Part shown: one piece after another, positions 4,166-34,708 of the stretch | Numbering within the stretch: the stretch's first letter is position 1 | How the letters are laid out: every line of letters starts with the position of its first letter | From: Candidatus Wildermuthbacteria bacterium | GTDB taxonomy: Bacteria; Patescibacteriota; Minisyncoccia; Minisyncoccales; UBA10102 | Reading direction: 5' to 3' | Assembly: GCA_016181405.1 (NCBI GenBank) | Contig: JACOZJ010000002.1 | Location: forward strand, 138,608 to 202,607 | DNA: 64,000 nt | Notes under the pieces: model-generated | Seen by the model: the letters and a program-made list of their open reading frames with translations, nothing else | The model's database searches: none | What the model was told of the DNA's origin: nothing | Made by a program: the position numbers and the translations under genes

Positions 4166-5398
4166 TTAAGGTGCAAAAAGGCGTTCAGCCTTCTTCCAGT
4201 CGATCAGTCCAGCTTGGTCGAGCTGGGTGACCGACGGGATAATCCGATCGTTGCGCACCTCTTCTGGAACAATGGGTTCCTCGGTGGATGGGATCCACCC
4301 CATGACGATTGGCCTCGCCATGAGTGTATTGTTGAGGCGAGTGATCGTCTCAACGGTCCACGTATCAAGCGCTGATGTTTCTTCGAAAGGGAGCATCAGC
4401 AAGAAGTTGGAGATCTGCTGCTGCATAATCGACTCTTTCCTGTCGTTGTTTGCAGCATCGAGCCGCGGGTTCGGGTTCCCCACCTGGACAACCGCATCAA
4501 CTCCTGGCGGCAAATGACACGCGCAGTAGTCCTCGGCGTACAAGGAGGTAACCGTCTCCTCCAGATAGCTCGTCGCAAATGGCCGGCGCATCGCAAGATC
4601 CCACCTAAGGACAAATTCTCCAGTGATCATCCACTTGTGCCCGCCAAGACGATAGCAGATTTCCTTTGCTCGCCTTCTTATTGCCGGGTCGATGCGCTCC
4701 GACCCAGCGACGCTATCAAGCATCCAGCGAGCGGTCATACATCGCTCGTTGGTACGACCAAACTTGGCCATTTTGATGTACTGGGCATCGGGCTTGGTTA
4801 CGATTCCGTACCCGAGGTATTCCCAGCACTGATAGCGGCGGAACTCTGCTATCTCTGCATCATTCTGGCCAATCCAAGCGGGTTTCCGGCCACCGCACTT
4901 CGCAGTAATATACCAATAGAGGTACCCTGCAAGAACTGCAACTCCCTTTCCTCGTGGTCGATCCCTCAAGTTAAGGATGGGGAGTAGCCTGTTCCAATCA
5001 AGGATATCAAGGATACCGTCGCTGCATGCAAGGCGCACACCCTTCTTGCCGTAGCGGCGCACTTCCTCGAGGGCATCTTCGTCGCTGCCGTTGTCCATGA
5101 CGAGAACGGATCCCGGCGTCACTCTATACTTCTTTACGAGTGTCGTGAGGAGCGGCCGAATGACCGGTCCATTCTCGCGCATTGGGACGACGAGCCCCAA
5201 GCTTCCATCGCGCAGAAGACGTCTGATCGCACTACTGCACTCTTGAAGATTTCCGTTCTTCGGCGTGAGGTAGCCACGGGCGAGCTCTACGCGCAGACGT
5301 TCCAAACTTCCATTGATGCTGGCGTTTTCATACGCCAGCGCGACGCGCTCTGCGTCTACTCCGTGCTGAAGCTTCAGATCATCATCCTTCATGGTCAC
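4166..5398 (-). CDS. GT-A retaining glycosyltransferase, mannosyl-/glucosyl-3-phosphoglycerate-synthase-like
   Basis: By eye it aligns to MPGS/GpgS blocks: VVPMRENGPVI, VLVMDNGSDED, RPRGKGVAVLAG, IGQNDAEI, ITGEFVLRWDLAMRRPFATSY. The gene is GC-richer than its neighbours. Confidence 0.5.
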   Translation of the reverse strand: MTMKDDDLKLQHGVDAERVALAYENASINGSLERLRVELARGYLTPKNGNLQECSSAIRRLLRDGSLGLVVPMRENGPVIRPLLTTLVKKYRVTPGSVLVMDNGSDEDALEEVRRYGKKGVRLACSDGILDILDWNRLLPILNLRDRPRGKGVAVLAGYLYWYITAKCGGRKPAWIGQNDAEIAEFRRYQCWEYLGYGIVTKPDAQYIKMAKFGRTNERCMTARWMLDSVAGSERIDPAIRRRAKEICYRLGGHKWMITGEFVLRWDLAMRRPFATSYLEETVTSLYAEDYCACHLPPGVDAVVQVGNPNPRLDAANNDRKESIMQQQISNFLLMLPFEETSALDTWTVETITRLNNTLMARPIVMGWIPSTEEPIVPEEVRNDRIIPSVTQLDQAGLIDWKKAERLFAP

Positions 5399-7502: not shown

Positions 7503-9999
7503 GAAAAGCAATCTCCGGGAGCCTATCCCGGACTCTATGCAACAAACAAAATCTCCTTCTGAACCTCAAGACGACTTACGCAATAAGCATCTCCTTGTAG
7601 TAAACTCCGGATACCGAAGAAAAGAATTTATTCTCAAGCGTATCCAAGAACTTGGCTGCAATATTATCCTCTTGAACAAAGAGAGGAATTGGGCGCAAAA
7701 ATACGTAGATTCTTTTATTCTTGCGGACACAAACAATCACTCAGAAAGCCTCGAAGCTGTAAAAAAATACGCCGAGCATAGCCCTATTGATGGCGTTATT
7801 ACTTTTTGGGAAGACGACGTGCTGCTTTGCGCCAAAATCGTGGATATGCTTGGTCTCCCCGGTATCCCCTACCGAGTAGCGAGAGTGGCAAGAAATAAAT
7901 ATCTTTTCCGGGATTTCTGCAAAGAGGCCGGGCTCCCAACACCTCAACACCGTACTATTTCCTCGCAGGCCGATGTTGATTTCGTGATAGAACACTTTAA
8001 CTTTCCGGTTATAGCCAAACCAGTATACGGCTCAAGTTCGGCTTTAGTAGTGAAGATAGAGAAGAAACGAGATCTCCAAAAAATAATCCGGTATATTTCA
8101 GAGAACATTTCAGAAAAAATGGAATCTGCTTTGATGGCAGGATCTCAAATCTTTGTAGAAGAATATCTAGACGGACAAGAGGTGGATATTGATATGCTCG
8201 TCCAAAATGGAAAGGTAAAATTTCACTCCATCACCGATAACGAACCGACCGACGAGCCGTTCTTCATTGAAGTCGGAGACTCCATACCCTCAAGTCTCTT
8301 GGAAGATAGCCAGCAAAAGCTGTTCGAAATGGCATCGGAAACGCTTGAAAAACTGGGAATCCAGCAGGGATGTATACACTTTGAAGCAAAGTGGACCAAG
8401 AGAGGCCCTTTCCCCATTGAGGTAAACCTTCGCATGGGCGGAGACTATGTGCACTCTTTGGTGAAAGGATGTTGGGGTGTGGATCTTGTGGAATACGCGG
8501 CAAAAATCGCTTTGGGCTTATATATTAAGCCAGAAAAACCTACTCAACCCTTACAGTATCTTAGGGGACAGTGTTTTCTTTCCGATTATTCTGGCGTTCT
8601 TGTCGAATTAGACGTCGACGAAGAACTCTACAAAAAACAGTATTTCGAACAGTTCTACTTTCTGAAAGAAGTGGGAGACCCGGTACTTGTACCTCCCGAA
8701 GGCTATGAATACTTAGGATGGGTAGTCGTGAAAGGAGAAAGCCCTGTGGTCGCGCAAAATAATCTAGAGGAGGCGCTCGAATGTGTCCGCTATACCGTGG
8801 CGAAATATCATCCCACTTCCTCGGTAGGTAAAACTATCAGGAAAACCCCTCTCTCCTTAGCTTCCTTTGCACGAGAACAAATTAAAGCTTCCGCATCTGT
8901 AGAAAGAGTGAAAGCCTTCAAAAAAGAAGGGCTCCACGTGGGAGTACTCTGCAATATCTATACCAAGGAAACTTCGCAAAATCCTGTGGAGAAAGAAGCA
9001 GAAGAAGATATTACTACCTCCGCGATTCAAATAAAAAACGCTCTTGAAAAGAAAGGGCACACCGTGGAGCTCTTCAACATGAATCAGCTTCTCCCCACAA
9101 TAAACCGTCTCGCGAGAAGAGACGTGGATATTGTGTTTAATGCTTGCGAGCGAATCAACAACTCCAGTCTCCTCAAACCCCATGCTTCGGCAATATTGGA
9201 TATTTTAAATATTCCCTATACAGGATCCAACCCGGTCGCGAGAGCCATTAGCATTGATAAAATCATAACAAAGAAAATTCTTAAGTATCACGGCATCCCC
9301 ACTCCGGAATTCGACTATCTTTTTTCTGTTGACGACAAAATTAATCCCGAACTGGAATACCCCCTTATTGTAAAGCCCGCAAACACCGACGACAGCATCG
9401 GAATCACTCAAAAATCAGTAGTTACCAACGAACAAAAACTCTATGCGCAAGTAAAAGAAATCATCACGGTATACAAGAGGCCAGTGCTTGTGGAAGAGTT
9501 CATCCAGGGGTCAGAGCTCGACGTGGGAGTTATTGGAAACCGCGGCAACATCCGTGTACTCCCCATCGAACGCACTCTCTTCAATAAACTACCACGCGGA
9601 AAATGGGGAATTTATTCTTACGAAGACAAATGGGGAGAAGGAAATATTCATGATTACTTCACAGTTGAATCGCCTGCTAGGATCCCCAAAAAGCAAATGC
9701 AGCTTGTTTCGGAAATCGCCATAGACGTATTCAACGCGCTCGGCTGCCACGACTATGCAAGAGTCGAGATGCGCATGGACGAACAAGGCAATATCTATGT
9801 CATCGAGCTGAATGCCCACCCCACCCTGGAAGAAGGAAGCTATTTTGGAAGAGTCGGGAAAAAACTCGGGCTTTCATTCGGCGATATTCTGCAGGAAATT
9901 ATTGAAGCAGCCGCGGGACGCTACGAAAACAAACCTCCTTTTTATCATCTTCAAGGAGGTATCGAAATCCCTCTTGAGACTATTCCACCGACAAAGTAA
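7501..9999 (+). CDS. fusion of two ATP-grasp ligase modules (L-amino-acid-ligase-like N-half, D-Ala-D-Ala-ligase-like C-half)
   Basis: N-half: FPVIAKPVYGSSSALV, IFVEEYLDGQEVDIDMLV, IEVNLRMGGD. C-half: YPLIVKPANTDDSIGI, VLVEEFIQGSELDVGVIG, YARVEMRMDEQGNIYVIELNAHP. The start may be ATG 7537 if the promoter call is right. Confidence 0.75.
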   Translation: MKSNLREPIPDSMQQTKSPSEPQDDLRNKHLLVVNSGYRRKEFILKRIQELGCNIILLNKERNWAQKYVDSFILADTNNHSESLEAVKKYAEHSPIDGVITFWEDDVLLCAKIVDMLGLPGIPYRVARVARNKYLFRDFCKEAGLPTPQHRTISSQADVDFVIEHFNFPVIAKPVYGSSSALVVKIEKKRDLQKIIRYISENISEKMESALMAGSQIFVEEYLDGQEVDIDMLVQNGKVKFHSITDNEPTDEPFFIEVGDSIPSSLLEDSQQKLFEMASETLEKLGIQQGCIHFEAKWTKRGPFPIEVNLRMGGDYVHSLVKGCWGVDLVEYAAKIALGLYIKPEKPTQPLQYLRGQCFLSDYSGVLVELDVDEELYKKQYFEQFYFLKEVGDPVLVPPEGYEYLGWVVVKGESPVVAQNNLEEALECVRYTVAKYHPTSSVGKTIRKTPLSLASFAREQIKASASVERVKAFKKEGLHVGVLCNIYTKETSQNPVEKEAEEDITTSAIQIKNALEKKGHTVELFNMNQLLPTINRLARRDVDIVFNACERINNSSLLKPHASAILDILNIPYTGSNPVARAISIDKIITKKILKYHGIPTPEFDYLFSVDDKINPELEYPLIVKPANTDDSIGITQKSVVTNEQKLYAQVKEIITVYKRPVLVEEFIQGSELDVGVIGNRGNIRVLPIERTLFNKLPRGKWGIYSYEDKWGEGNIHDYFTVESPARIPKKQMQLVSEIAIDVFNALGCHDYARVEMRMDEQGNIYVIELNAHPTLEEGSYFGRVGKKLGLSFGDILQEIIEAAAGRYENKPPFYHLQGGIEIPLETIPPTK

Positions 10000-10864
10000 A
10001 AAGCACTCTCGCGTTCTCTGTGGTGGCGCGAGCCACGTCTTCAAAACTTACCTTTTTGATGCGCGCGATTTCTTCTGCCACATATCGTACGAACGAGGGT
10101 TCGTTTCTTTCTTGTCCCGCCGCAGGAGGAACAAGATAAGGAGAATCTGTCTCCAGAACAATGCGTTCAAGCGGGATAGATGCAATAACTTCTTTTGGAT
10201 CCGGCAAAGCCGGCACGTCTTTGAAAATCAACCCATTAAATCCTACATATAACCCGAGCTCAAGAAATTCCTGCGCCTGCTCTGCAGTACCTGTATAGCT
10301 ATGAACCACCCCCCGCAAGTGGTTAATAGTTAGCAGTTCAAGTAAGTCTTCGTGCGCTTTCCGGCAATGAAGAATAACAGGCAGGCCGAATTCACCTGCC
10401 AGATCCATCTGCTTTTGCAGGATTTCCTTCTGCTTTTGTTTGATTTCTTCCCGCCTTGTTTTGCTCTTCGGGAAATAATAATAGTCCAACCCAACCTCCC
10501 CTACCGCCACTACTTTCCCTTTTGAAGAACCAGAAATAAGTTCCTTATACGCCTCGTAATCGAATTCTTCCGCCCGGGTTTCAAACGTTTCCCACGGCTG
10601 CTTTGCACCAGCATCCTCTGATTGAGTTTCCAGCACCTCAACCTTTCTTTGTTCTCCTACATGAATCGGATGCAAACCAATCGCAGCATATACCCCGCGT
10701 TCGTAACCCTCCGCAATTTCCACGGCCCTCTTTGAAGTGGAATATTGGGATCCTGGCATAATAATCCAGGTGTTATCCCTAAGAGCGCGGAGAATTACCT
10801 CATCTCCATCCTCCTTAAAGGCACGAAAATTTACGTGCCCATGAGTATCTATAAGCATATACAT
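9980..10864 (-). CDS. tatD: TatD-family metal-dependent hydrolase
   Basis: MLIDTHGHVNF, HPIHV, EVGLDYYY, PVILHCRKAHEDLL, VVHSYTG, ETDSPYL. Confidence 0.85.
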   Translation of the reverse strand: MYMLIDTHGHVNFRAFKEDGDEVILRALRDNTWIIMPGSQYSTSKRAVEIAEGYERGVYAAIGLHPIHVGEQRKVEVLETQSEDAGAKQPWETFETRAEEFDYEAYKELISGSSKGKVVAVGEVGLDYYYFPKSKTRREEIKQKQKEILQKQMDLAGEFGLPVILHCRKAHEDLLELLTINHLRGVVHSYTGTAEQAQEFLELGLYVGFNGLIFKDVPALPDPKEVIASIPLERIVLETDSPYLVPPAAGQERNEPSFVRYVAEEIARIKKVSFEDVARATTENARVLFTLSVE

Positions 10865-10880
10865 ATTTTTAGCTTATTCG

Positions 10881-10920
10881 GGAAAAAAAGAAAGAGGGCT
10901 CGTGTTTGCTACACGAGCCC
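10881..10920 (-). terminator. intrinsic terminator
   Basis: Minus strand GGGCTCGTG-tagcaaa-CACGAGCCC followed by TCTTTCTTTTTTT. Confidence 0.7.
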
Positions 10921-11320: not shown

Positions 11321-11343
11321 AAAAAACTCCCGTGTGTCGGGAG
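11321..11343 (-). terminator. attenuator terminator, module A
   Basis: Minus strand CTCCCG-acaca-CGGGAG-TTTTTTATT. Confidence 0.7.
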
Positions 11344-11373
11344 GTGGTTTTTTGATACGTTTTACTGCTCTTA

Positions 11374-11478
11374 TTACATACGTTTATCTTTCAACCTCCC
11401 ACACACGAAAAAATAGCCCATTGAGGCATTATCAGCTTTGTATTGGTATGCTCTATGCGTGTTGGATAGTGTGTTCAT
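11374..11478 (-). CDS. candidate leader peptide A (34 aa)
   Basis: MNTLSNTHRAYQYKADNASMGYFFVCGRLKDKRM. The ATG is 13 nt after the -10 and has no SD. Codons 24-29 (11407-11394) pair with 11345-11331, which overlaps the terminator. Confidence 0.45.
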   Translation of the reverse strand: MNTLSNTHRAYQYKADNASMGYFFVCGRLKDKRM

Positions 11479-11491
11479 GCTCGAATTCGTT

Positions 11492-11521
11492 ACTATACTC
11501 CCCGACACTATGGCATGTCAA
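11492..11521 (-). promoter_or_regulatory. sigma70-type promoter, module A
   Basis: Minus strand TTGACA-N18-TATAGT. Confidence 0.6.
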
Positions 11522-11947: not shown

Positions 11948-11964
11948 AGATCGCCTCCCCGCTA

Positions 11965-12004
11965 TGTGTGCTCTGCGCTGACTATATTCAGCGCATCGAA
12001 TGAG
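11965..12004 (-). repeat. R1: conserved 5'-leader hairpin element (copy 1 of 2)
   Basis: Minus strand TCATTCGATGCGCTGAATATAGTCAGCGCAGAGCACACA. It shares the TCGATGCGCTGA...CAGCGCAGAGCACA core with 12358-12396 and sits about 20 nt before an SD and start codon. Confidence 0.6.
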
Positions 12005-12036
12005 TATCATTTACATGTTAGCCATTCGTTAGGCTC

Positions 12037-12082
12037 AATAAAAATTTGCTGGGGCTCGTTCTCTTGGTTGAAAACGAGCCCC
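12037..12082 (-). terminator. intrinsic terminator after the 79-aa ORF
   Basis: Minus strand GGGGCTCGTTTTC-aaccaa-GAGAACGAGCCCC followed by AGCAAATTTTTATT. Confidence 0.65.
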
Positions 12083-12103: not shown

Positions 12104-12343
12104 CTACGGAGCAACTAGGGCAGGGGATGTCCGAACAGCGGCAAGCCTGCCCTCCAGGCCAGAAATACTGATCCCGATCGCGTCGGCTCTGTCGGCGAGT
12201 CGCTTCTCCTCTTCGTAAGAAAGATTGTCTCTCTTCATTTCGGCGCACACCCGCTTGAGAGCACTCTTCTTCTTTCTAATCCTCCGCTCAATGGTACGTA
12301 TCCTTGCAATTTCCTCGGCAACTTCTTGATCGACGCATTCCAT
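12104..12343 (-). CDS. hypothetical coiled-coil-like small protein (79 aa)
   Basis: AGGAGG 7 nt before the ATG. MECVDQEVAEEIARIRTIERRIRKKKSALKRV... Confidence 0.5.
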   Translation of the reverse strand: MECVDQEVAEEIARIRTIERRIRKKKSALKRVCAEMKRDNLSYEEEKRLADRADAIGISISGLEGRLAAVRTSPALVAP

Positions 12344-12357
12344 GACCCGCCTCCTGA

Positions 12358-12396
12358 CATGTGCTCTGCGCTGCTGATGTTCAGCGCATCGAGTGA
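12358..12396 (-). repeat. R2: conserved 5'-leader hairpin element (copy 2 of 2)
   Basis: Minus strand TCACTCGATGCGCTGAACATCAGCAGCGCAGAGCACATG, directly followed by TCAGGAGGCGGGTC-ATG. Confidence 0.6.
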
Positions 12397-12427
12397 ATAA
12401 TACTTGTATTACCCTTTCGATGCACTT

Positions 12428-12456
12428 AACAAAAGCGGCCTCCTTTAGGAGGCCGC
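12428..12456 (-). terminator. attenuator terminator, module B
   Basis: Minus strand GCGGCCTCC-taaa-GGAGGCCGC-TTTTGTT. Confidence 0.75.
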
Positions 12457-12483
12457 CAGTTAAAGAATTTTAAATGTTTCTCT

Positions 12484-12561
12484 TTAGCAAAAGGCCTCCC
12501 GGTTCATGGGGCTAATAATGCTAATAATTTCATTTACCAAAGAGGTATTCTGCATACTCAT
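12484..12561 (-). CDS. candidate leader peptide B (25 aa, Ile/Ser repeat)
   Basis: MSMQNTSLVNEIISIISPMNREAFC, with ATT ATT AGC ATT ATT AGC. The ATG is 6 nt after the -10, so it is leaderless. GGAGGCC at 12499-12493 can pair with the terminator 5' arm. Confidence 0.45.
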   Translation of the reverse strand: MSMQNTSLVNEIISIISPMNREAFC

Positions 12562-12567
12562 AGAAAT

Positions 12568-12595
12568 ATACTATCAAGATAAAATATATTGTCAA
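12568..12595 (-). promoter_or_regulatory. sigma70-type promoter, module B
   Basis: Minus strand GGGGTTGACA-N16-TAGTAT. Confidence 0.65.
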
Positions 12596-12615: not shown

Positions 12616-12692
12616 TGGTGAGGCGAGTTGGACTCGAACCAACACCCGTGCGACCCCTCAAGTCGCTGCTCACCTAGATGAGCTATCGCCTC
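12616..12692 (-). tRNA. atypical tRNA, anticodon GAG (Leu CUC/CUU by the standard code), short variable region, CCA encoded
   Basis: Hand-folded cloverleaf: GAGGCGA TA GCTC ATCTAGGT GAGC A GCGAC TTGAGGG GTCGC ACGGGT GTTGG TTCGAGT CCAAC TCGCCTC A CCA. Confidence 0.7.
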
Positions 12693-12706: not shown

Positions 12707-12958
12707 CTACCCCTGAACCTCAACGGGTAGCTTGTTGAGGGTTTGCACGAAGTCTTCGACAATTCGCCGCACGTACTCCCGGTACTGGAGTACTTCATCG
12801 GGGCTGATCACCTGTTGCCCCTGTGCCGTGAGCGTAATGCTAGATTGGAAATCTGTTGATGGATCTCCGGAGTCTCGTGTCAGGATAGCGGTCGCCGTCG
12901 GAACCTTGCCGATCTCTGCGGTTACCTTAAGCTGATCGACTCTCCACTGCTCGTGCAT
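12707..12958 (-). CDS. hypothetical protein (83 aa)
   Basis: GGGAGG 6 nt before the ATG. MHEQWRVDQLKVTAEIGKVPTATAILTRDSG.... The stop is 14 nt before the tRNA 5' end. Confidence 0.5.
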   Translation of the reverse strand: MHEQWRVDQLKVTAEIGKVPTATAILTRDSGDPSTDFQSSITLTAQGQQVISPDEVLQYREYVRRIVEDFVQTLNKLPVEVQG

Positions 12959-13049
12959 ATCAAACCTCCCTTGAATGTGCTTGCGCCTTGAGCGCACTGC
13001 GGATTCACAACTAGATTTGCGAACCCAATTATAGACTCAAGAAATGGCT

Positions 13050-13716: not shown

Positions 13717-13751
13717 GGAAAACAAAGAACCTCCCTTTGGCTGGGAGGTTC
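13717..13751 (-). terminator. attenuator terminator, module C
   Basis: Minus strand GAACCTCCC-agccaaa-GGGAGGTTC-TTTGTTTT. Confidence 0.75.
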
Positions 13752-13773
13752 GTTGAAATATCGAAGCTTTATT

Positions 13774-13875
13774 TTACAAATTTCTTCCAGCCAAATTAAG
13801 GGGTTTCGTAACACCCAACAAGACAACCAAGACAATCATGATATTCTGAATTTGGCTGAATAAATTCTGCCGCAT
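13774..13875 (-). CDS. candidate leader peptide C (33 aa, Ile/Leu/Val run)
   Basis: MRQNLFSQIQNIMIVLVVLLGVTKPLNLAGRNL. The ATG is 13 nt after the -10. TTTGGCTGG (13795-13787) is complementary to CCAGCCAAA (13744-13736) in the terminator. Confidence 0.5.
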   Translation of the reverse strand: MRQNLFSQIQNIMIVLVVLLGVTKPLNLAGRNL

Positions 13876-13888
13876 AAATCTTTGTTTG

Positions 13889-13917
13889 AATATACACGAC
13901 CCAAAGAATGCTGTCAA
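13889..13917 (-). promoter_or_regulatory. sigma70-type promoter, module C
   Basis: Minus strand GGGGTTGACA-N17-TATATT. Confidence 0.7.
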
Positions 13918-14278: not shown

Positions 14279-14593
14279 TTAAGGAACGAAGTAGGGCTTC
14301 TTGGGCCCCTCGGCCCCGATAAATGCCCGATGGCGAGCCCGTCGGTCACTCCTGGTCACCTGCCCCTTGCGCTGGAGTAGGGCAAACCCGACTCGGCAAG
14401 TCCGCACTTCCACGTCGCACGGGATCATGCCAATGAAAGCTTCTGGAAGCAACACATACTTGCACTGCCTCTTCTGAAGCTTTTCCACCGCCTCCCTGGC
14501 AGTGTTGCATGTAATACGCCTGCGTGGGGGCGTCTTGTAAAAAAACGCCTCCACAGGAGCTATCTCCACCGCAACGATAGAAAGAACTGCCAT
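14279..14593 (-). CDS. hypothetical basic protein (104 aa)
   Basis: GGGGAGGG 6 nt before the ATG. MAVLSIVAVEIAPVEAFFYKTPPRRRITCNTAREAVEKLQ... Confidence 0.5.
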   Translation of the reverse strand: MAVLSIVAVEIAPVEAFFYKTPPRRRITCNTAREAVEKLQKRQCKYVLLPEAFIGMIPCDVEVRTCRVGFALLQRKGQVTRSDRRARHRAFIGAEGPKKPYFVP

Positions 14594-14700: not shown

Positions 14701-14729
14701 AACAAAAAACCCTCCCGGCTGGGAGGATT
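14701..14729 (-). terminator. attenuator terminator, module D
   Basis: Minus strand AATCCTCCC-agcc-GGGAGGGTT-TTTTGTT. Confidence 0.75.
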
Positions 14730-14766
14730 TTTGTTTCGGATTTAAGCTTGTTCTCTTTTGCTTTTC

Positions 14767-14844
14767 CTACTGTAAATCTCCCAACCTTAGTAAGGGGGTA
14801 AAGAAAGCAAAAAAGAAAAAGTTTTTCGATGCGCTATACTGCAT
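14767..14844 (-). CDS. candidate leader peptide D (25 aa, Phe run)
   Basis: MQYSASKNFFFFAFFTPLLRLGDLQ (TTT TTC TTT TTT GCT TTC TTT). GGTTGGGAGATT (14786-14775) pairs with AATCCTCCCAGCC (14729-14717), the terminator 5' arm. Confidence 0.55.
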   Translation of the reverse strand: MQYSASKNFFFFAFFTPLLRLGDLQ

Positions 14845-14859
14845 ATTCTGTATACCGGC

Positions 14860-14888
14860 AGTATATACCAACAAGCGTTTCGTGTCAA
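14860..14888 (-). promoter_or_regulatory. sigma70-type promoter, module D
   Basis: Minus strand GGGGTTGACA-N17-TATACT. Confidence 0.7.
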
Positions 14889-15015: not shown

Positions 15016-15330
15016 CTACTCCCAAAGCGGAAAAAAACGGAAGCAAAGCGTACCATTGTCTGCAATCCAGAAGGGCAGGATACGCGACCAGAAAATCAGC
15101 TCCTCAAGAATCATATCTTCGGTTTCCAGAGAAAAAAGCTGCCGAAGGGCCTCCCGCACTTTCTGCTGAAAACCCCTCTGCCATATCTCTTCCAGCTCAT
15201 TCGGAAACTGCCGCGTAAAGTCCAAAACCTCCTGCGGAATCTCCATCCATCGCGGCGGCCACTCACAGTGCCGACCCCACGTTTCATCCCTTGTACCGGC
15301 GTTGCGATGCAACAGAAGCCCCGTTTCCAT
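15016..15330 (-). CDS. hypothetical Trp-rich protein (104 aa, 7 Trp)
   Basis: AAAGGAGCGGGGAG directly before the ATG. METGLLLHRNAGTRDETWGRHCEWPPRWMEIPQEV...IFWSRILPFWIADNGTLCFRFFPLWE. Confidence 0.5.
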   Translation of the reverse strand: METGLLLHRNAGTRDETWGRHCEWPPRWMEIPQEVLDFTRQFPNELEEIWQRGFQQKVREALRQLFSLETEDMILEELIFWSRILPFWIADNGTLCFRFFPLWE

Positions 15331-15390
15331 CTCCCCGCTCCTTTTGTGCTGTTCGCTGGGAAATTGCGAGAATCTCCCAACCTGCAACAC

Positions 15391-15421
15391 AAACAAAAAA
15401 CCTCTGGCAAAGTCCAGAGGG
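15391..15421 (-). terminator. attenuator terminator, module E
   Basis: Minus strand CCCTCTGG-actttg-CCAGAGG-TTTTTTGTTTG. Confidence 0.75.
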
Positions 15422-15450
15422 TAAAATGCAAGAAAAGAATTTAAGTATGT

Positions 15451-15540
15451 TTACGCGTCAAACTTGGACTTTGCTTTTAGATATTGCAAAGCCCACCACC
15501 ATACTCGCACGCTATTTTTTATTTGAGGCGCGCTCTTCAT
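15451..15540 (-). CDS. candidate leader peptide E (29 aa, WWW)
   Basis: MKSAPQIKNSVRVWWWALQYLKAKSKFDA (TGG TGG TGG at codons 14-16). The ATG is 6 nt after the -10, so it is leaderless. GCAAAGTCCA (15474-15465) is complementary to TGGACTTTGC (15416-15407) in the terminator. Confidence 0.55.
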   Translation of the reverse strand: MKSAPQIKNSVRVWWWALQYLKAKSKFDA

Positions 15541-15546
15541 ATGCTC

Positions 15547-15575
15547 TATATTACTTTTATACGTAGTGTTGTCAA
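15547..15575 (-). promoter_or_regulatory. sigma70-type promoter, module E
   Basis: Minus strand TTGACA-N17-AATATA. The -35 overlaps the pepP-like stop codon. Confidence 0.6.
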
Positions 15576-16690
15576 GCGATAATCCATTTATCTTTGGGGA
15601 AAGTCGTAAAATTTTCAAATCCATCTTTCTTGACGAGAATATCGTCTTCAATGCGGATGCCGCCAACTTCAGGATAGTACAATCCCGGCTCAATGGTAAT
15701 CACGTTTCCCGGCACAAGCTCATATTCTCCCCTTTCTCCTAGCCGCGGCTCTTCGTGCACCTCCAGCCCTACGCCGTGGCCGGTATTATGGATAAATCCC
15801 CTATCTCCTACGTCATATCCTGCGTCCAACAATATCTCTGCGCATATCTTATGGATATCGCTTGCTTTCTTGCCGGGAGCTATGGCGCGCATGCCTTCTT
15901 CCTGGGCCTTTCGCACCGCCTCATACATTTTTTGGAGTTCTTCTGCCGGAGTTCCTTTTACAAAGGTTCTTGTGACATCTGCGAAATACCTTGTGGCGCG
16001 GCTCTTAGGAAAAATGTCGCAAACAATTGGCTCATGCGGCTTAATTGCGCCTTCCCCGGGATGATGCGGAATCGCAGTCTGCAATCCAGAAGAAATAATT
16101 ATTCCTTCTTCGCTTATCATACCTTCTTCAAACAGCAACTTTTCAACTTCTTTCTTCAAAAACTCGCTTGTGAGAATCGCGCCGCTATAGAAAATATTGT
16201 CCTTTTTGATAACAGACTCTCGCAAAATCTTTTCAATGAGAGCGAATGCCTTTTCGGTTTTTTGGACACTCGAGCGAATCGCCTCCACCTCATCTGCCGT
16301 TTTGCTGGCCCGCTCCGGGTACAAATGAATCCGGGGAACAAGTTTCACTCCCTTGGAACGCAGAAAGTCAGCCAGCAAGAGCGGAAAATTATTGGGCACG
16401 GTGATTATCTCTCCTAAAAGCTCGTACTTTTGCAGCAAATACCATGCTAAATTTTGAAGGTTATCTTTGCTTATCTTTAGCTTTGCGGCCTCCTGCGCAA
16501 GAGGATTAAGAAGCTGGACTTCAATGCTTTGATTTTTATTCCTTTCCTGAAACAGACCGAACTCACGATGATCCAGAAAAACATATTTCTTCAGGCCCAA
16601 ATCAATCAGAAAGAATGGATCCGCAATATCCATTCTTACCGTATAAAATACATCCCGGTTTTTCGTGCTGTCGTAAATGAGTTTTGCCAT
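15572..16690 (-). CDS. Xaa-Pro aminopeptidase (M24B family)
   Basis: Creatinase-like N-domain plus a pita-bread fold. HNTGHGVGLEVHE, ITIEPGLY, GIRIEDD. Confidence 0.85.
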   Translation of the reverse strand: MAKLIYDSTKNRDVFYTVRMDIADPFFLIDLGLKKYVFLDHREFGLFQERNKNQSIEVQLLNPLAQEAAKLKISKDNLQNLAWYLLQKYELLGEIITVPNNFPLLLADFLRSKGVKLVPRIHLYPERASKTADEVEAIRSSVQKTEKAFALIEKILRESVIKKDNIFYSGAILTSEFLKKEVEKLLFEEGMISEEGIIISSGLQTAIPHHPGEGAIKPHEPIVCDIFPKSRATRYFADVTRTFVKGTPAEELQKMYEAVRKAQEEGMRAIAPGKKASDIHKICAEILLDAGYDVGDRGFIHNTGHGVGLEVHEEPRLGERGEYELVPGNVITIEPGLYYPEVGGIRIEDDILVKKDGFENFTTFPKDKWIIA

Positions 16691-34343: not shown

Positions 34344-34708
34344 TGGGGATGTCCAGCTTTGACAGCGAGCCAAAGCAATTCTCGCGATGGGAGTACGGCC
34401 TCCTTAAAACCGAGGCAATACAACTGCCAACATTTTTAAGCCGGCACAACCGGCTCTTGCCTACGCATAACGCCAACAGGCGAATTTGCAGGCCATTCGC
34501 TCTTTGACTCTCGATAAAAGAAGCGGGTGTCAACCATCGAGATAGATAGCTTTTTCGAAGGTCCGGGAGCTATTGATCTTTAAGGACCATCAAAGAGAAA
34601 GTGGGTTCGTCCAGTTCTTGCACTCTCTCTTTCAAAAAACTGGACTATCATCGTAGATAGAATTTCCTCGTCTCGCTGGACGCGGGTTCGACCCCGCCAT
34701 CTCCACCA
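34344..34708 (+). ncRNA. ssrA: tmRNA (ssrA)
   Basis: 5' GGGGATGTCCAGCTTTGACAGCGAG and a 3' tRNA-like end GGACGCGGGTTCGACCCCGCCATCTCCACCA. The candidate tag ORF at 34426-34470 is GCC AAC ATT TTT AAG CCG GCA CAA CCG GCT CTT GCC TAC GCA TAA (ANIFKPAQPALAYA). Confidence 0.9.

Follow-up and report, generated by a model that had tools for sequence, protein, structure and literature searches.

Here we analyzed a 64-kb stretch of DNA (hereafter, the window) from a metagenome-assembled genome (MAG) of Candidatus Wildermuthbacteria, which belongs to the Patescibacteria/Candidate Phyla Radiation (CPR), and found that one element of the window, module B, is probably an isoleucine (Ile)-responsive, ribosome-mediated leader-peptide transcription attenuator that senses how much charged tRNA-Ile is available. 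Five tandem units, module B among them, are located between the Xaa-Pro aminopeptidase gene (15572–16690) and tatD (9980–10864), and each comprises a promoter, a short open reading frame (ORF), and a terminator. All elements of module B are on the minus strand (−). The module shows the attenuator hallmarks of a promoter-proximal short ORF, a cluster of Ile codons, an intrinsic terminator, an overlapping antiterminator, and an upstream 1:2 helix. Sequence features, conservation, alternative folds, and spacing were computed, and from these we infer the transcription start site, ribosome stalling, termination, and the role of the 79-amino acid (aa) ORF downstream. An attenuator had also been proposed in a first-pass annotation of this DNA. 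The leader ORF with its Ile run, the segment GGGAGGCC, and the terminator are conserved, in support of that proposal, whereas the Ile-Ile-Ser unit and the weakness of the antiterminator that it assumed were not borne out. Two features go beyond that annotation: an anti-antiterminator helix upstream, and a regulated gene (cargo) that encodes an orphan small protein and is not an Ile pathway gene.

Promoter and leader ORF of module B

A sigma-70-type promoter that matches 10 of the 12 consensus positions is located at 12568–12595 (−), where TTGACA (12595–12590), a 16-nt spacer, and TAGTAT (12573–12568) are present as first annotated, together with an upstream TG. The leader ORF (12484–12561, −) consists of 25 codons and a stop codon (12486–12484), encodes the peptide MSMQNTSLVNEIISIISPMNREAFC, and has no Shine-Dalgarno (SD) sequence. 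Its ATG at 12561 begins exactly 6 nt past the −10 hexamer. Since the distance from the −10 hexamer to the ATG is 6–7 nt, the mRNA of module B appears to be leaderless or near-leaderless. A −10-like hexamer was also observed 6–9 nt before the ATG of tatD in this clade (window 10864–10895; L003, L005, L006, and L022; L numbers denote contigs of relatives), and these tatD genes have no SD sequence and directly follow the previous terminator. Judging from the tatD promoter geometry alone, leaderless mRNAs may be common or habitual in these bacteria.

Relatives of the locus were recovered with TatD as an anchor, and the homologues of this flanking gene came from Wildermuthbacteria, Parcubacteria, and Patescibacteria MAGs. 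Six further module B leaders were obtained, so that the comparison covers seven lineages on Wildermuthbacteria-like contigs, the window included; L001 and L002 are 100% identical to the window and give no comparative information. The six leaders encode the peptides MQKASLAIEIISIINPTKREAFC (L003, = L099/L100), MSYQKGIITIIGIITPKREAFLKHA (L102, start at 4758), MSNKGVTMIIGIIIHPIQREALLR (L103, start at 783), MSYKGLITIIGVITPQRREAFL (L104, start at 2070), MSYQRGLIGIIGIITPHIREAFLQMKREK (L105, start at 125), and MSYQKGIISIIEIIIPQAREAFLKHA (L108, start at 5378). A near-consensus TTGACA promoter is in the same position in all module B orthologues, and the ATG is 6–7 nt past the −10 hexamer in six of the seven. 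The exception is L003, in which the first ATG has changed to ATT and the in-frame ATG two codons later, corresponding to a second in-frame ATG of the window at 12555, is retained as the start. The 6-nt geometry described in the first-pass annotation is exact in the window and is not universal.

The annotated repeat ATT ATT AGC ATT ATT AGC is present as codons 12–17 (12528–12511), which places four Ile residues (Ile12, 13, 15, and 16) within five consecutive positions of the window leader. The columns of these presumed regulatory codons (ATT ATT AGC ATT ATT, 12514–12528, −) are invariant in the orthologue alignment, and the reading frame of the leader ORF is conserved in all seven lineages. Each leader contains 4–7 Ile in 22–29 residues, compared with 6.5% Ile in the long ORFs of the genome. 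Of the 38 Ile codons in the seven leaders, 36 are ATT, compared with a genome-wide ATT share of 47% among Ile codons; this bias, a figure inflated by shared ancestry, suggests that the specific codon is sensed or that AUUAUU is constrained at the RNA level. Across the orthologues, S, T, G, N, or E is found between the Ile codons. Therefore, Ile would be the sensed residue and nothing points to serine, and the Ile-Ile-Ser repeat unit and serine sensing suggested earlier can be set aside. Between the window and L003, all seven differences in the peptide are nonsynonymous, with the Ile codons retained. Outside the Ile run and a REAF motif, which is encoded by the structural GGGAGGCCUUU and is the translation of the structural CGGGAGGCCUUU, the leader peptide is not conserved.

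This lack of conservation bears on the idea that the 25-residue peptide is itself the product, for example as a small hydrophobic peptide or a type I toxin, with the hairpin merely ending its gene. Related leaders do encode hydrophobic stretches such as IMIVLVVLLGV and FFFFAFF; however, other modules encode TTTT or MMMGMAM, IISIIS is too short for a membrane span, and no antisense RNA or antitoxin feature was seen. We consider a functional peptide product very improbable.

Alternative secondary structures of the leader RNA

Three overlapping helices were predicted in the leader RNA. Segment 1 (CUCUUUGGUAAA, 12533–12544, −) is the 5′ strand of the anti-antiterminator helix P1 (1:2), a 12-bp helix between 12544–12533 and 12491–12480 that has −17.4 kcal/mol alone and is part of the minimum free energy (MFE) structure of the full leader. 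Segment 2 (12480–12500, −), which consists of GGGAGGCC (12500–12493) and UUUUGCUAAAGAG, spans the last codons and the stop codon and can pair with segment 1 or segment 3. In the full antiterminator (2:3; 12447–12500, −; −20.5 kcal/mol), an 8-bp core, GGGAGGCC:GGCCUCCU, is joined by an internal loop to the inner helices GCUA/UGGC and AGAGAA/UUCUUU. The intrinsic terminator (3:4; 12427–12457, −), GGCGGCCUCC-UAAA-GGAGGCCGCU followed by UUUUGUU, has about −20.6 to −21.1 kcal/mol; in the DNA, GGCGGCCTCC-TAAA-GGAGGCCGCT (12457–12434) followed by TTTTGTT forms 10 pairs, of which 8 are G-C. The first-pass annotation had placed GGAGGCC at 12499–12493 (codons 21–23) and described a 7-bp pairing that was the weakest of the five antiterminators in the window. 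The position was right, but the complementarity is 8 nt plus the inner helices, and the antiterminator (−20.5 vs −20.6 kcal/mol for the terminator) is the second most stable of the five by absolute energy.

The window leader was then folded in stages, with assumed values for the ribosome footprint here and in the register analysis below. When the transcript was cut before the 3′ arm of the terminator, the antiterminator was the MFE structure without a ribosome, and it remained so with the sequence masked as far as 12 nt past an Ile codon; the folding-energy comparison proposed earlier thereby showed that the pairing is not energetically irrelevant. A footprint masked at the stop codon abolished the antiterminator completely, and the MFE structure of the full-length RNA was the 1:2 helix plus the terminator. 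The predicted folds of the window are those of the classical 1:2/2:3/3:4 logic.

The same three folding stages recurred in the orthologues even though the spacer that separates the stop codon from the terminator cannot be aligned and in L104 holds an extra hairpin. The 1:2 helix was predicted in five of six orthologues before segment 3 is made, with partners that differ between lineages; the 2:3 pairing was the MFE structure before the 3′ arm in 6/6 (−16 to −20 kcal/mol) and was removed by a stop-codon footprint in 6/6; and 1:2 plus 3:4 was the MFE structure at full length. GGGAGGCC and the terminator CGGCCUCC are invariant in the orthologue alignment, the 40–100 nt between them being unalignable, and all orthologues keep a CGGCCUCC/GGAGGCCG terminator. 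Across the orthologues, 96.6% of the terminator cells are paired, one pair being compensatory and four showing wobble changes, and the antiterminator core is 100% paired in six sequences, 6 of its 8 pairs never varying. In five orthologues, including the window, GGGAGGCC begins 13 nt past the final Ile codon of the run, and in two it begins 10 nt past it; from the assumed footprint, a ribosome stalled at the Ile run would have its leading edge near this point. The stop codon is 6 nt past GGGAGGCC in the window and 6–9 nt past it in four of the six folded orthologues. In L108 (5480–5510), the 5′ arm of the terminator is GGCCCCCC instead of GGCCUCCC, so that the terminator and the antiterminator each contain a C-A mismatch; this is either a real variant weakening both helices equally or a homopolymer assembly error.

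The full leader of module B folded better than shuffled sequences (z = −3.2). In a separate comparison with 300 mononucleotide shuffles, the terminator 5′ arm was fully sequestered upstream in only 4/300. As a statistic, 5′-arm sequestration is weak; the competing 1:2 helix confounds it, and several modules gave no significant result. The pairing in module B is modest when taken alone and becomes clear with the relatives, because the architecture recurs in six orthologues and in the four other modules of the window.

The alternative folds are predicted without reference to translation, and the switch could therefore be real but set by a protein, a tRNA, or a metabolite, in the manner of TRAP, a T-box, PyrR, or a riboswitch, rather than by a ribosome; the invariant AUUAUU...AUUAUU and GGGAGGCC could serve as binding sites. 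However, no T-box, riboswitch, or protein-binding-leader match to module B was obtained in Rfam at E up to 5, and no specifier-loop or T-box architecture was found. Module B matched no Rfam family at the gathering threshold, the best being Phe_leader (23.5 bits, E = 1.2, terminator only) and L20_leader (18.9 bits). Furthermore, paralogous modules differ mainly in their repeated codons (L102 VLAVLVIVV vs IITIIGIIT, with leaders otherwise similar), which is predicted by codon reading and not by ligand binding. A ligand-operated switch thus seems unlikely to us.

Predicted switching by ribosome stalling

In the proposed attenuator, transcription would start at or about 1 nt from the ATG, and the 25-codon ORF would be translated leaderless or near-leaderless. 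Segment 1 (12544–12533) would pair first with the part of segment 2 beside GGGAGGCC (12491–12480), and this 1:2 helix would be melted by the translating ribosome. When Ile-tRNA is scarce, the ribosome would stall on ATT ATT AGC ATT ATT and cover segment 1, with its leading edge ending just before GGGAGGCC, 13 nt past the last Ile codon. Segment 2 would then be free to pair with the 5′ arm of the terminator (−20.5 kcal/mol), and RNA polymerase would read into the downstream repeat R2 and the 79-aa ORF. When Ile is plentiful, the ribosome would reach the stop codon, 6 nt past GGGAGGCC, and mask segment 2; the 10-bp terminator would form and transcription would end at the U run. If the ORF is not translated, the 1:2 helix would persist and likewise lead to termination.

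Several observations weigh against this attenuator. At equilibrium the full-length RNA always prefers the terminator, and the model therefore depends on co-transcriptional kinetics. In L102 and L105, the stop codon is 15–24 nt past GGGAGGCC, where a terminating ribosome would mask the segment less completely. No pair of the antiterminator core covaries, and the evidence for this core is its conservation against a divergent background together with its position. The energy gain was matched in 40/300 shuffles, so that module B alone is only weakly better than shuffled sequences. The 36/38 ATT codons hint at a nucleotide-level constraint beyond the use of any Ile codon, and the orthologues are not independent samples. 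Finally, the regulated gene is without homologues and unconnected to Ile metabolism, and the 79-aa ORF is itself putative. A cargo in the synthesis or supply pathway of the sensed amino acid is the attenuator hallmark that module B lacks; it is present in sister modules of L003, in which a phenylalanine (Phe) leader is followed by pheA and an aromatic leader by the 3-deoxy-D-arabino-heptulosonate 7-phosphate (DAHP) synthase gene.

R2 element and the 79-aa ORF

The terminator, R2, and the 79-aa ORF were found downstream where the first-pass annotation had placed them. R2 is a 40-nt repeat (12399–12360) with a second copy at 12006–11967. The region at 12344–12399 (−) contains the R2 hairpin (UGCGCUG...CAGCGCA), GAGCACA, and then the strong SD sequence AGGAGG of the cargo gene, at about 12350–12356. 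L003 retains R2, and L005, L006, L105, and L108 have variants of the hairpin. The motif AGCACA-N(2–14)-GGAG occurs within the window only before cargo ORFs of the module cluster (5 matches vs 1.1 expected), with sites at 11955–11972, 12351–12365, 12966–12981, and 15331–15350 (−) that usually come after a short GCGC-type hairpin (R2). It recurs directly past the terminators in L102, L103, and L104. The AGCACA motif/R2 could serve for processing, protein binding, or translation.

The regulated 79-aa ORF (12104–12343, −) was modeled by AF2 as a helical hairpin (pLDDT 80) with predicted helices at residues 3–38 and 43–71. A Foldseek search with this fold returned only generic or designed hairpins (best E = 0.4, designed proteins), and PDB sequence searches gave no relative. 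Among 5.8e9 proteins or 1.8e9 representatives, the only match was the protein itself, hypothetical protein HYT49_00780, and searches with an 83-aa ORF of the window likewise found only the protein itself. Nothing significant was obtained in Pfam or PHROGs for any of the ten small downstream ORFs of the window, the 79-aa ORF included. The 79-aa ORF is predicted to be an orphan helical hairpin, not a biosynthetic enzyme. A G+C-rich hairpin read from the sequence just past it (GGGGCUCGUU...AACGAGCCCC, 12051–12082, −) is probably the operon end; the terminator scan did not report it because its T run is weak.

The cargo differs strongly among relatives. In L003, L105, L108, and possibly L005, it consists of 54–60-aa charged helical proteins that share little beyond an 'LS..E' turn. 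From this turn (LS...E) and 22–37% identity between short charged helices, the cargos of the Ile leaders in the window, L003, L105, L108, and L005 may tentatively be regarded as homologous. The cargo of the L102 Ile leader is an unrelated 77-aa protein; the possibility that it is a paralogue of the neighbouring ALS_ss_C protein was not supported (BLASTP E = 5.6). In L103 and L104, the cargos are proteins of ~50 aa with the C-terminal end LPAKDSLEGV. When the window was compared with L003 (12350–13040 and 14700–14893), the leaders showed 79–90% nucleotide identity and the cargo was entirely different, the similarity ending at the cargo start codon in module B (through the leader and R2) or right past the terminator in the Phe module. 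Therefore, the sensor is conserved, and the cargo has been exchanged or has evolved beyond recognition.

A leader conserved at the nucleotide level (about 79–90%) far above a downstream cargo that is replaced between relatives would also be expected if module B were a stand-alone gene for a trans-acting small RNA, with a promoter, an RNA of ~130 nt, and a terminator, and with an incidental short ORF and Ile run. The near-consensus promoter, the strong terminator, the folding of the full leader relative to shuffles, and the sequence-level constraint suggested by near-exclusive ATT fit such a gene as well. On the other hand, all seven lineages retain the frame, the start codon, and the in-frame Ile run, with nonsynonymous changes at other codons, sister modules with other single-amino-acid runs precede matching biosynthetic genes, and a same-strand cargo ORF with a strong SD sequence, for which no promoter of its own was detected, always follows. 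A small RNA gene is, in our estimation, improbable, although slightly less so than the ligand-operated switch; a combined form, in which the attenuated transcript has a second role in trans, could also be envisaged.

The arrangement of the cargo also bears on whether Ile stalling controls translation of the downstream ORF or Rho-dependent polarity instead of intrinsic termination. The leaderless geometry would suit such control, the CCUCC and GGAGG of the terminator arms could also interact with the cargo SD sequence, and stalled ribosomes that unmask the ribosome-binding site (RBS) of a 3′ gene have a mycobacterial polycysteine precedent (10.1101/834739). However, a G+C-rich hairpin with a U run is situated between the leader and the cargo in all orthologues, and the cargo SD sequence is ~80 nt past the terminator, behind the separate R2 hairpin. 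We judge control at this level in place of termination to have little likelihood, comparable to that of a bound ligand, and the two levels are compatible and not mutually exclusive.

Sister modules and the pepP–tatD interval

The four other modules of the window, all on the minus strand, carry the runs WWW (15401–15575, promoter at 15575; peptide MKSAPQIKNSVRVWWWALQYLKAKSKFDA), FFFFAFF (14711–14888, promoter at 14888; MQYSASKNFFFFAFFTPLLRLGDLQ), IMIVLVVLLGV (13727–13917, promoter at 13917; MRQNLFSQIQNIMIVLVVLLGVTKPLNLAGRNL), and Y..Y, YFF (11327–11521, promoter at 11521; MNTLSNTHRAYQYKADNASMGYFFVCGRLKDKRM). In the WWW, FFFFAFF, and IMIVLVVLLGV modules, placing a ribosome on the run led to predicted sequestration of the terminator 5′ arm, whereas in the 11521 module the arm was not sequestered if YFF is the sensor. 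Across the window and relatives, TTTT, LLLGLLLLLL, and MMMGMAM runs are also found in modules of this design. The Phe module (14701–14837, −) gave a full-model match to Rfam RF01859 Phe_leader (45.5 bits, E = 1.7e-5; gathering score 55), and its FFFFAFFTP recalls E. coli PheL; the module either belongs, distantly, with the enterobacterial pheA leader or has come to resemble it by convergence.

In L003, an FFFFAFF leader precedes pheA (PDT + ACT) and an aromatic leader, YSFWYFTFT, precedes the DAHP synthase gene; the window counterparts of these cargos are orphan ORFs. The 104-aa ORF past the Phe leader of the window (14279–14593, −) has ~48–50% full-length identity to the ORF past the Phe leader of L102 (2450–2761) and matched no family. 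An origin of this 104-aa ORF as a remnant of the PheA N-terminus was rejected, hhalign having aligned the expected region with a probability of 0.2% and E = 0.38. A second 104-aa ORF, past the WWW leader (15016–15330, −), contains 7 Trp (6.7% vs 1.4% genome-wide). Such a Trp-rich cargo is odd for a protein made at Trp scarcity, and the ORF might not be real or the logic might differ.

L102 1–6640 is a richer island with leaders for Phe, Leu, Val, Ile, Met, and possibly Thr. There, an LLLGLLLLLL leader precedes a stand-alone LeuA allosteric domain (LeuA_dimer, E = 2e-19), a VLAVLVIVV leader precedes an ALS_ss_C protein (E = 1.7e-12), and past an MMMGMAM leader comes a protein that weakly matches SAM_HAT_C (E = 8.4e-5, 23.3 bits vs a cut-off of 25.5). 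The pair LeuA_dimer and SAM_HAT_C is found again in L103. The L102 island also holds a Trp-repressor gene between GTACTAGTAC palindromes, and a T-box candidate in it (375–700) was rejected, as it had no Rfam match at the gathering threshold. In L110 (2805–5206) and L004 (8500–10000), the methionyl-tRNA synthetase gene adjoins tatD with no modules between. Since the modules are missing between these two genes in some relatives, the island is a variable insertion.

One possible, rather doubtful reading of the pepP–tatD interval as a whole is a modular starvation-sensing island of conserved, tandem, amino-acid-specific leader-peptide cassettes with repeatedly exchanged cargo, in which stalling would be the main per-amino-acid nutrient sensor of an auxotrophic, probably host-dependent CPR cell and would launch non-biosynthetic responses. 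The cassettes would cover Trp, Phe, Ile/Val/Leu, Ile, and Tyr/Phe in the window and also Thr, Leu, Val, Met, and aromatic residues in relatives. Their cargo would range from enzymes under feedback regulation (PheA and DAHP synthase) through stand-alone allosteric domains that bind amino acids (LeuA_dimer and ALS_ss_C) and a SAM-hydrolase-like protein to fast-evolving orphan mini-proteins, including the 79-aa protein.

Directly upstream of the module B promoter is a tRNA-Leu(GAG) gene (12616–12692, −), and the layout is the same in L003. This gene starts 14 nt past the last ORF (12707–12958, −) of the operon with the Ile/Val/Leu leader with no terminator between, likewise in L003, and may be co-transcribed under the branched-chain leader. 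It scored 51 bits in a regional Rfam run and was missed by the whole-window run at the gathering threshold. Elsewhere in the window, a tmRNA gene was found at 34345–34708 (+), with the tag peptide ANIFKPAQPALAYA.

Comparison with known attenuation systems

Leader-peptide attenuation is textbook biology, the classical enterobacterial attenuators being trpL, pheL/pheA, thrL, leuL, ilvL/ivbL, and hisL, and CPR bacteria are regarded as largely auxotrophic. To our knowledge, attenuation is known almost entirely as feedback on amino-acid biosynthetic operons of free-living bacteria. Full-text literature searches returned no report of a leader peptide or attenuator in Patescibacteria/CPR. The mechanism proposed for module B is classical; the lineage and the regulated gene are unexpected. 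The new aspects are an Ile-only, apparently leaderless sensor, its place in a CPR array for multiple amino acids, and its wiring to an orphan mini-protein. If the reading is true, it would provide a testable handle on how ultra-small symbionts perceive starvation for single amino acids, a list of unknown cargo genes that form the starvation response, and, for synthetic biology, compact and portable switches that respond to Ile, Trp, Phe, Leu, or Met.

Like the enterobacterial attenuators, module B has a promoter-near short ORF with a run of codons for a single amino acid, three overlapping helices (1:2, 2:3, and 3:4), and an intrinsic terminator, and a stalled ribosome is predicted to select the antiterminator. 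Codons for Ile, Val, and Leu occur together in the enterobacterial ilv leaders, as do those for Thr and Ile in thrL. Unlike the enterobacterial leaders, module B is Ile-only, has no SD sequence, is apparently leaderless, and belongs to no Rfam leader family; it is one of five tandem modules in a CPR bacterium, and its cargo is a 79-aa orphan and not an Ile biosynthetic operon.

The attenuator Rli60 of Listeria monocytogenes was validated by mutants of the start codon, the RBS, and the terminator, and its antiterminator and terminator have −10.3 and −17.1 kcal/mol, respectively (PMC5864092). The ilv leader peptides of Staphylococcus aureus and Corynebacterium are reported to be branched-chain amino acid (BCAA) attenuators (PMC5794164, PMC10272879). 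Module B shares with the attenuators of Listeria, Staphylococcus, and Corynebacterium the BCAA codons and the alternative antiterminator and terminator hairpins. In contrast, these Gram-positive systems regulate ilv/leu operons and use an RBS, and the cargo of module B is predicted to be non-enzymatic. The antiterminator of module B is also relatively stronger than that of Rli60 (−20.5 vs −20.6 kcal/mol, compared with −10.3 vs −17.1 kcal/mol).

In mycobacteria, leaderless polycysteine short ORFs constitute the 'Cys ribulon', in which a stalled ribosome unmasks the RBS of the next gene (10.1101/834739). Module B resembles them in having a first-cistron short ORF that is leaderless, here judging from promoter geometry, a single-amino-acid tract as the presumed sensor, and several independent modules. 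It differs from them in that the predicted target is an intrinsic terminator, and in the amino acid, the lineage, and the cargo.

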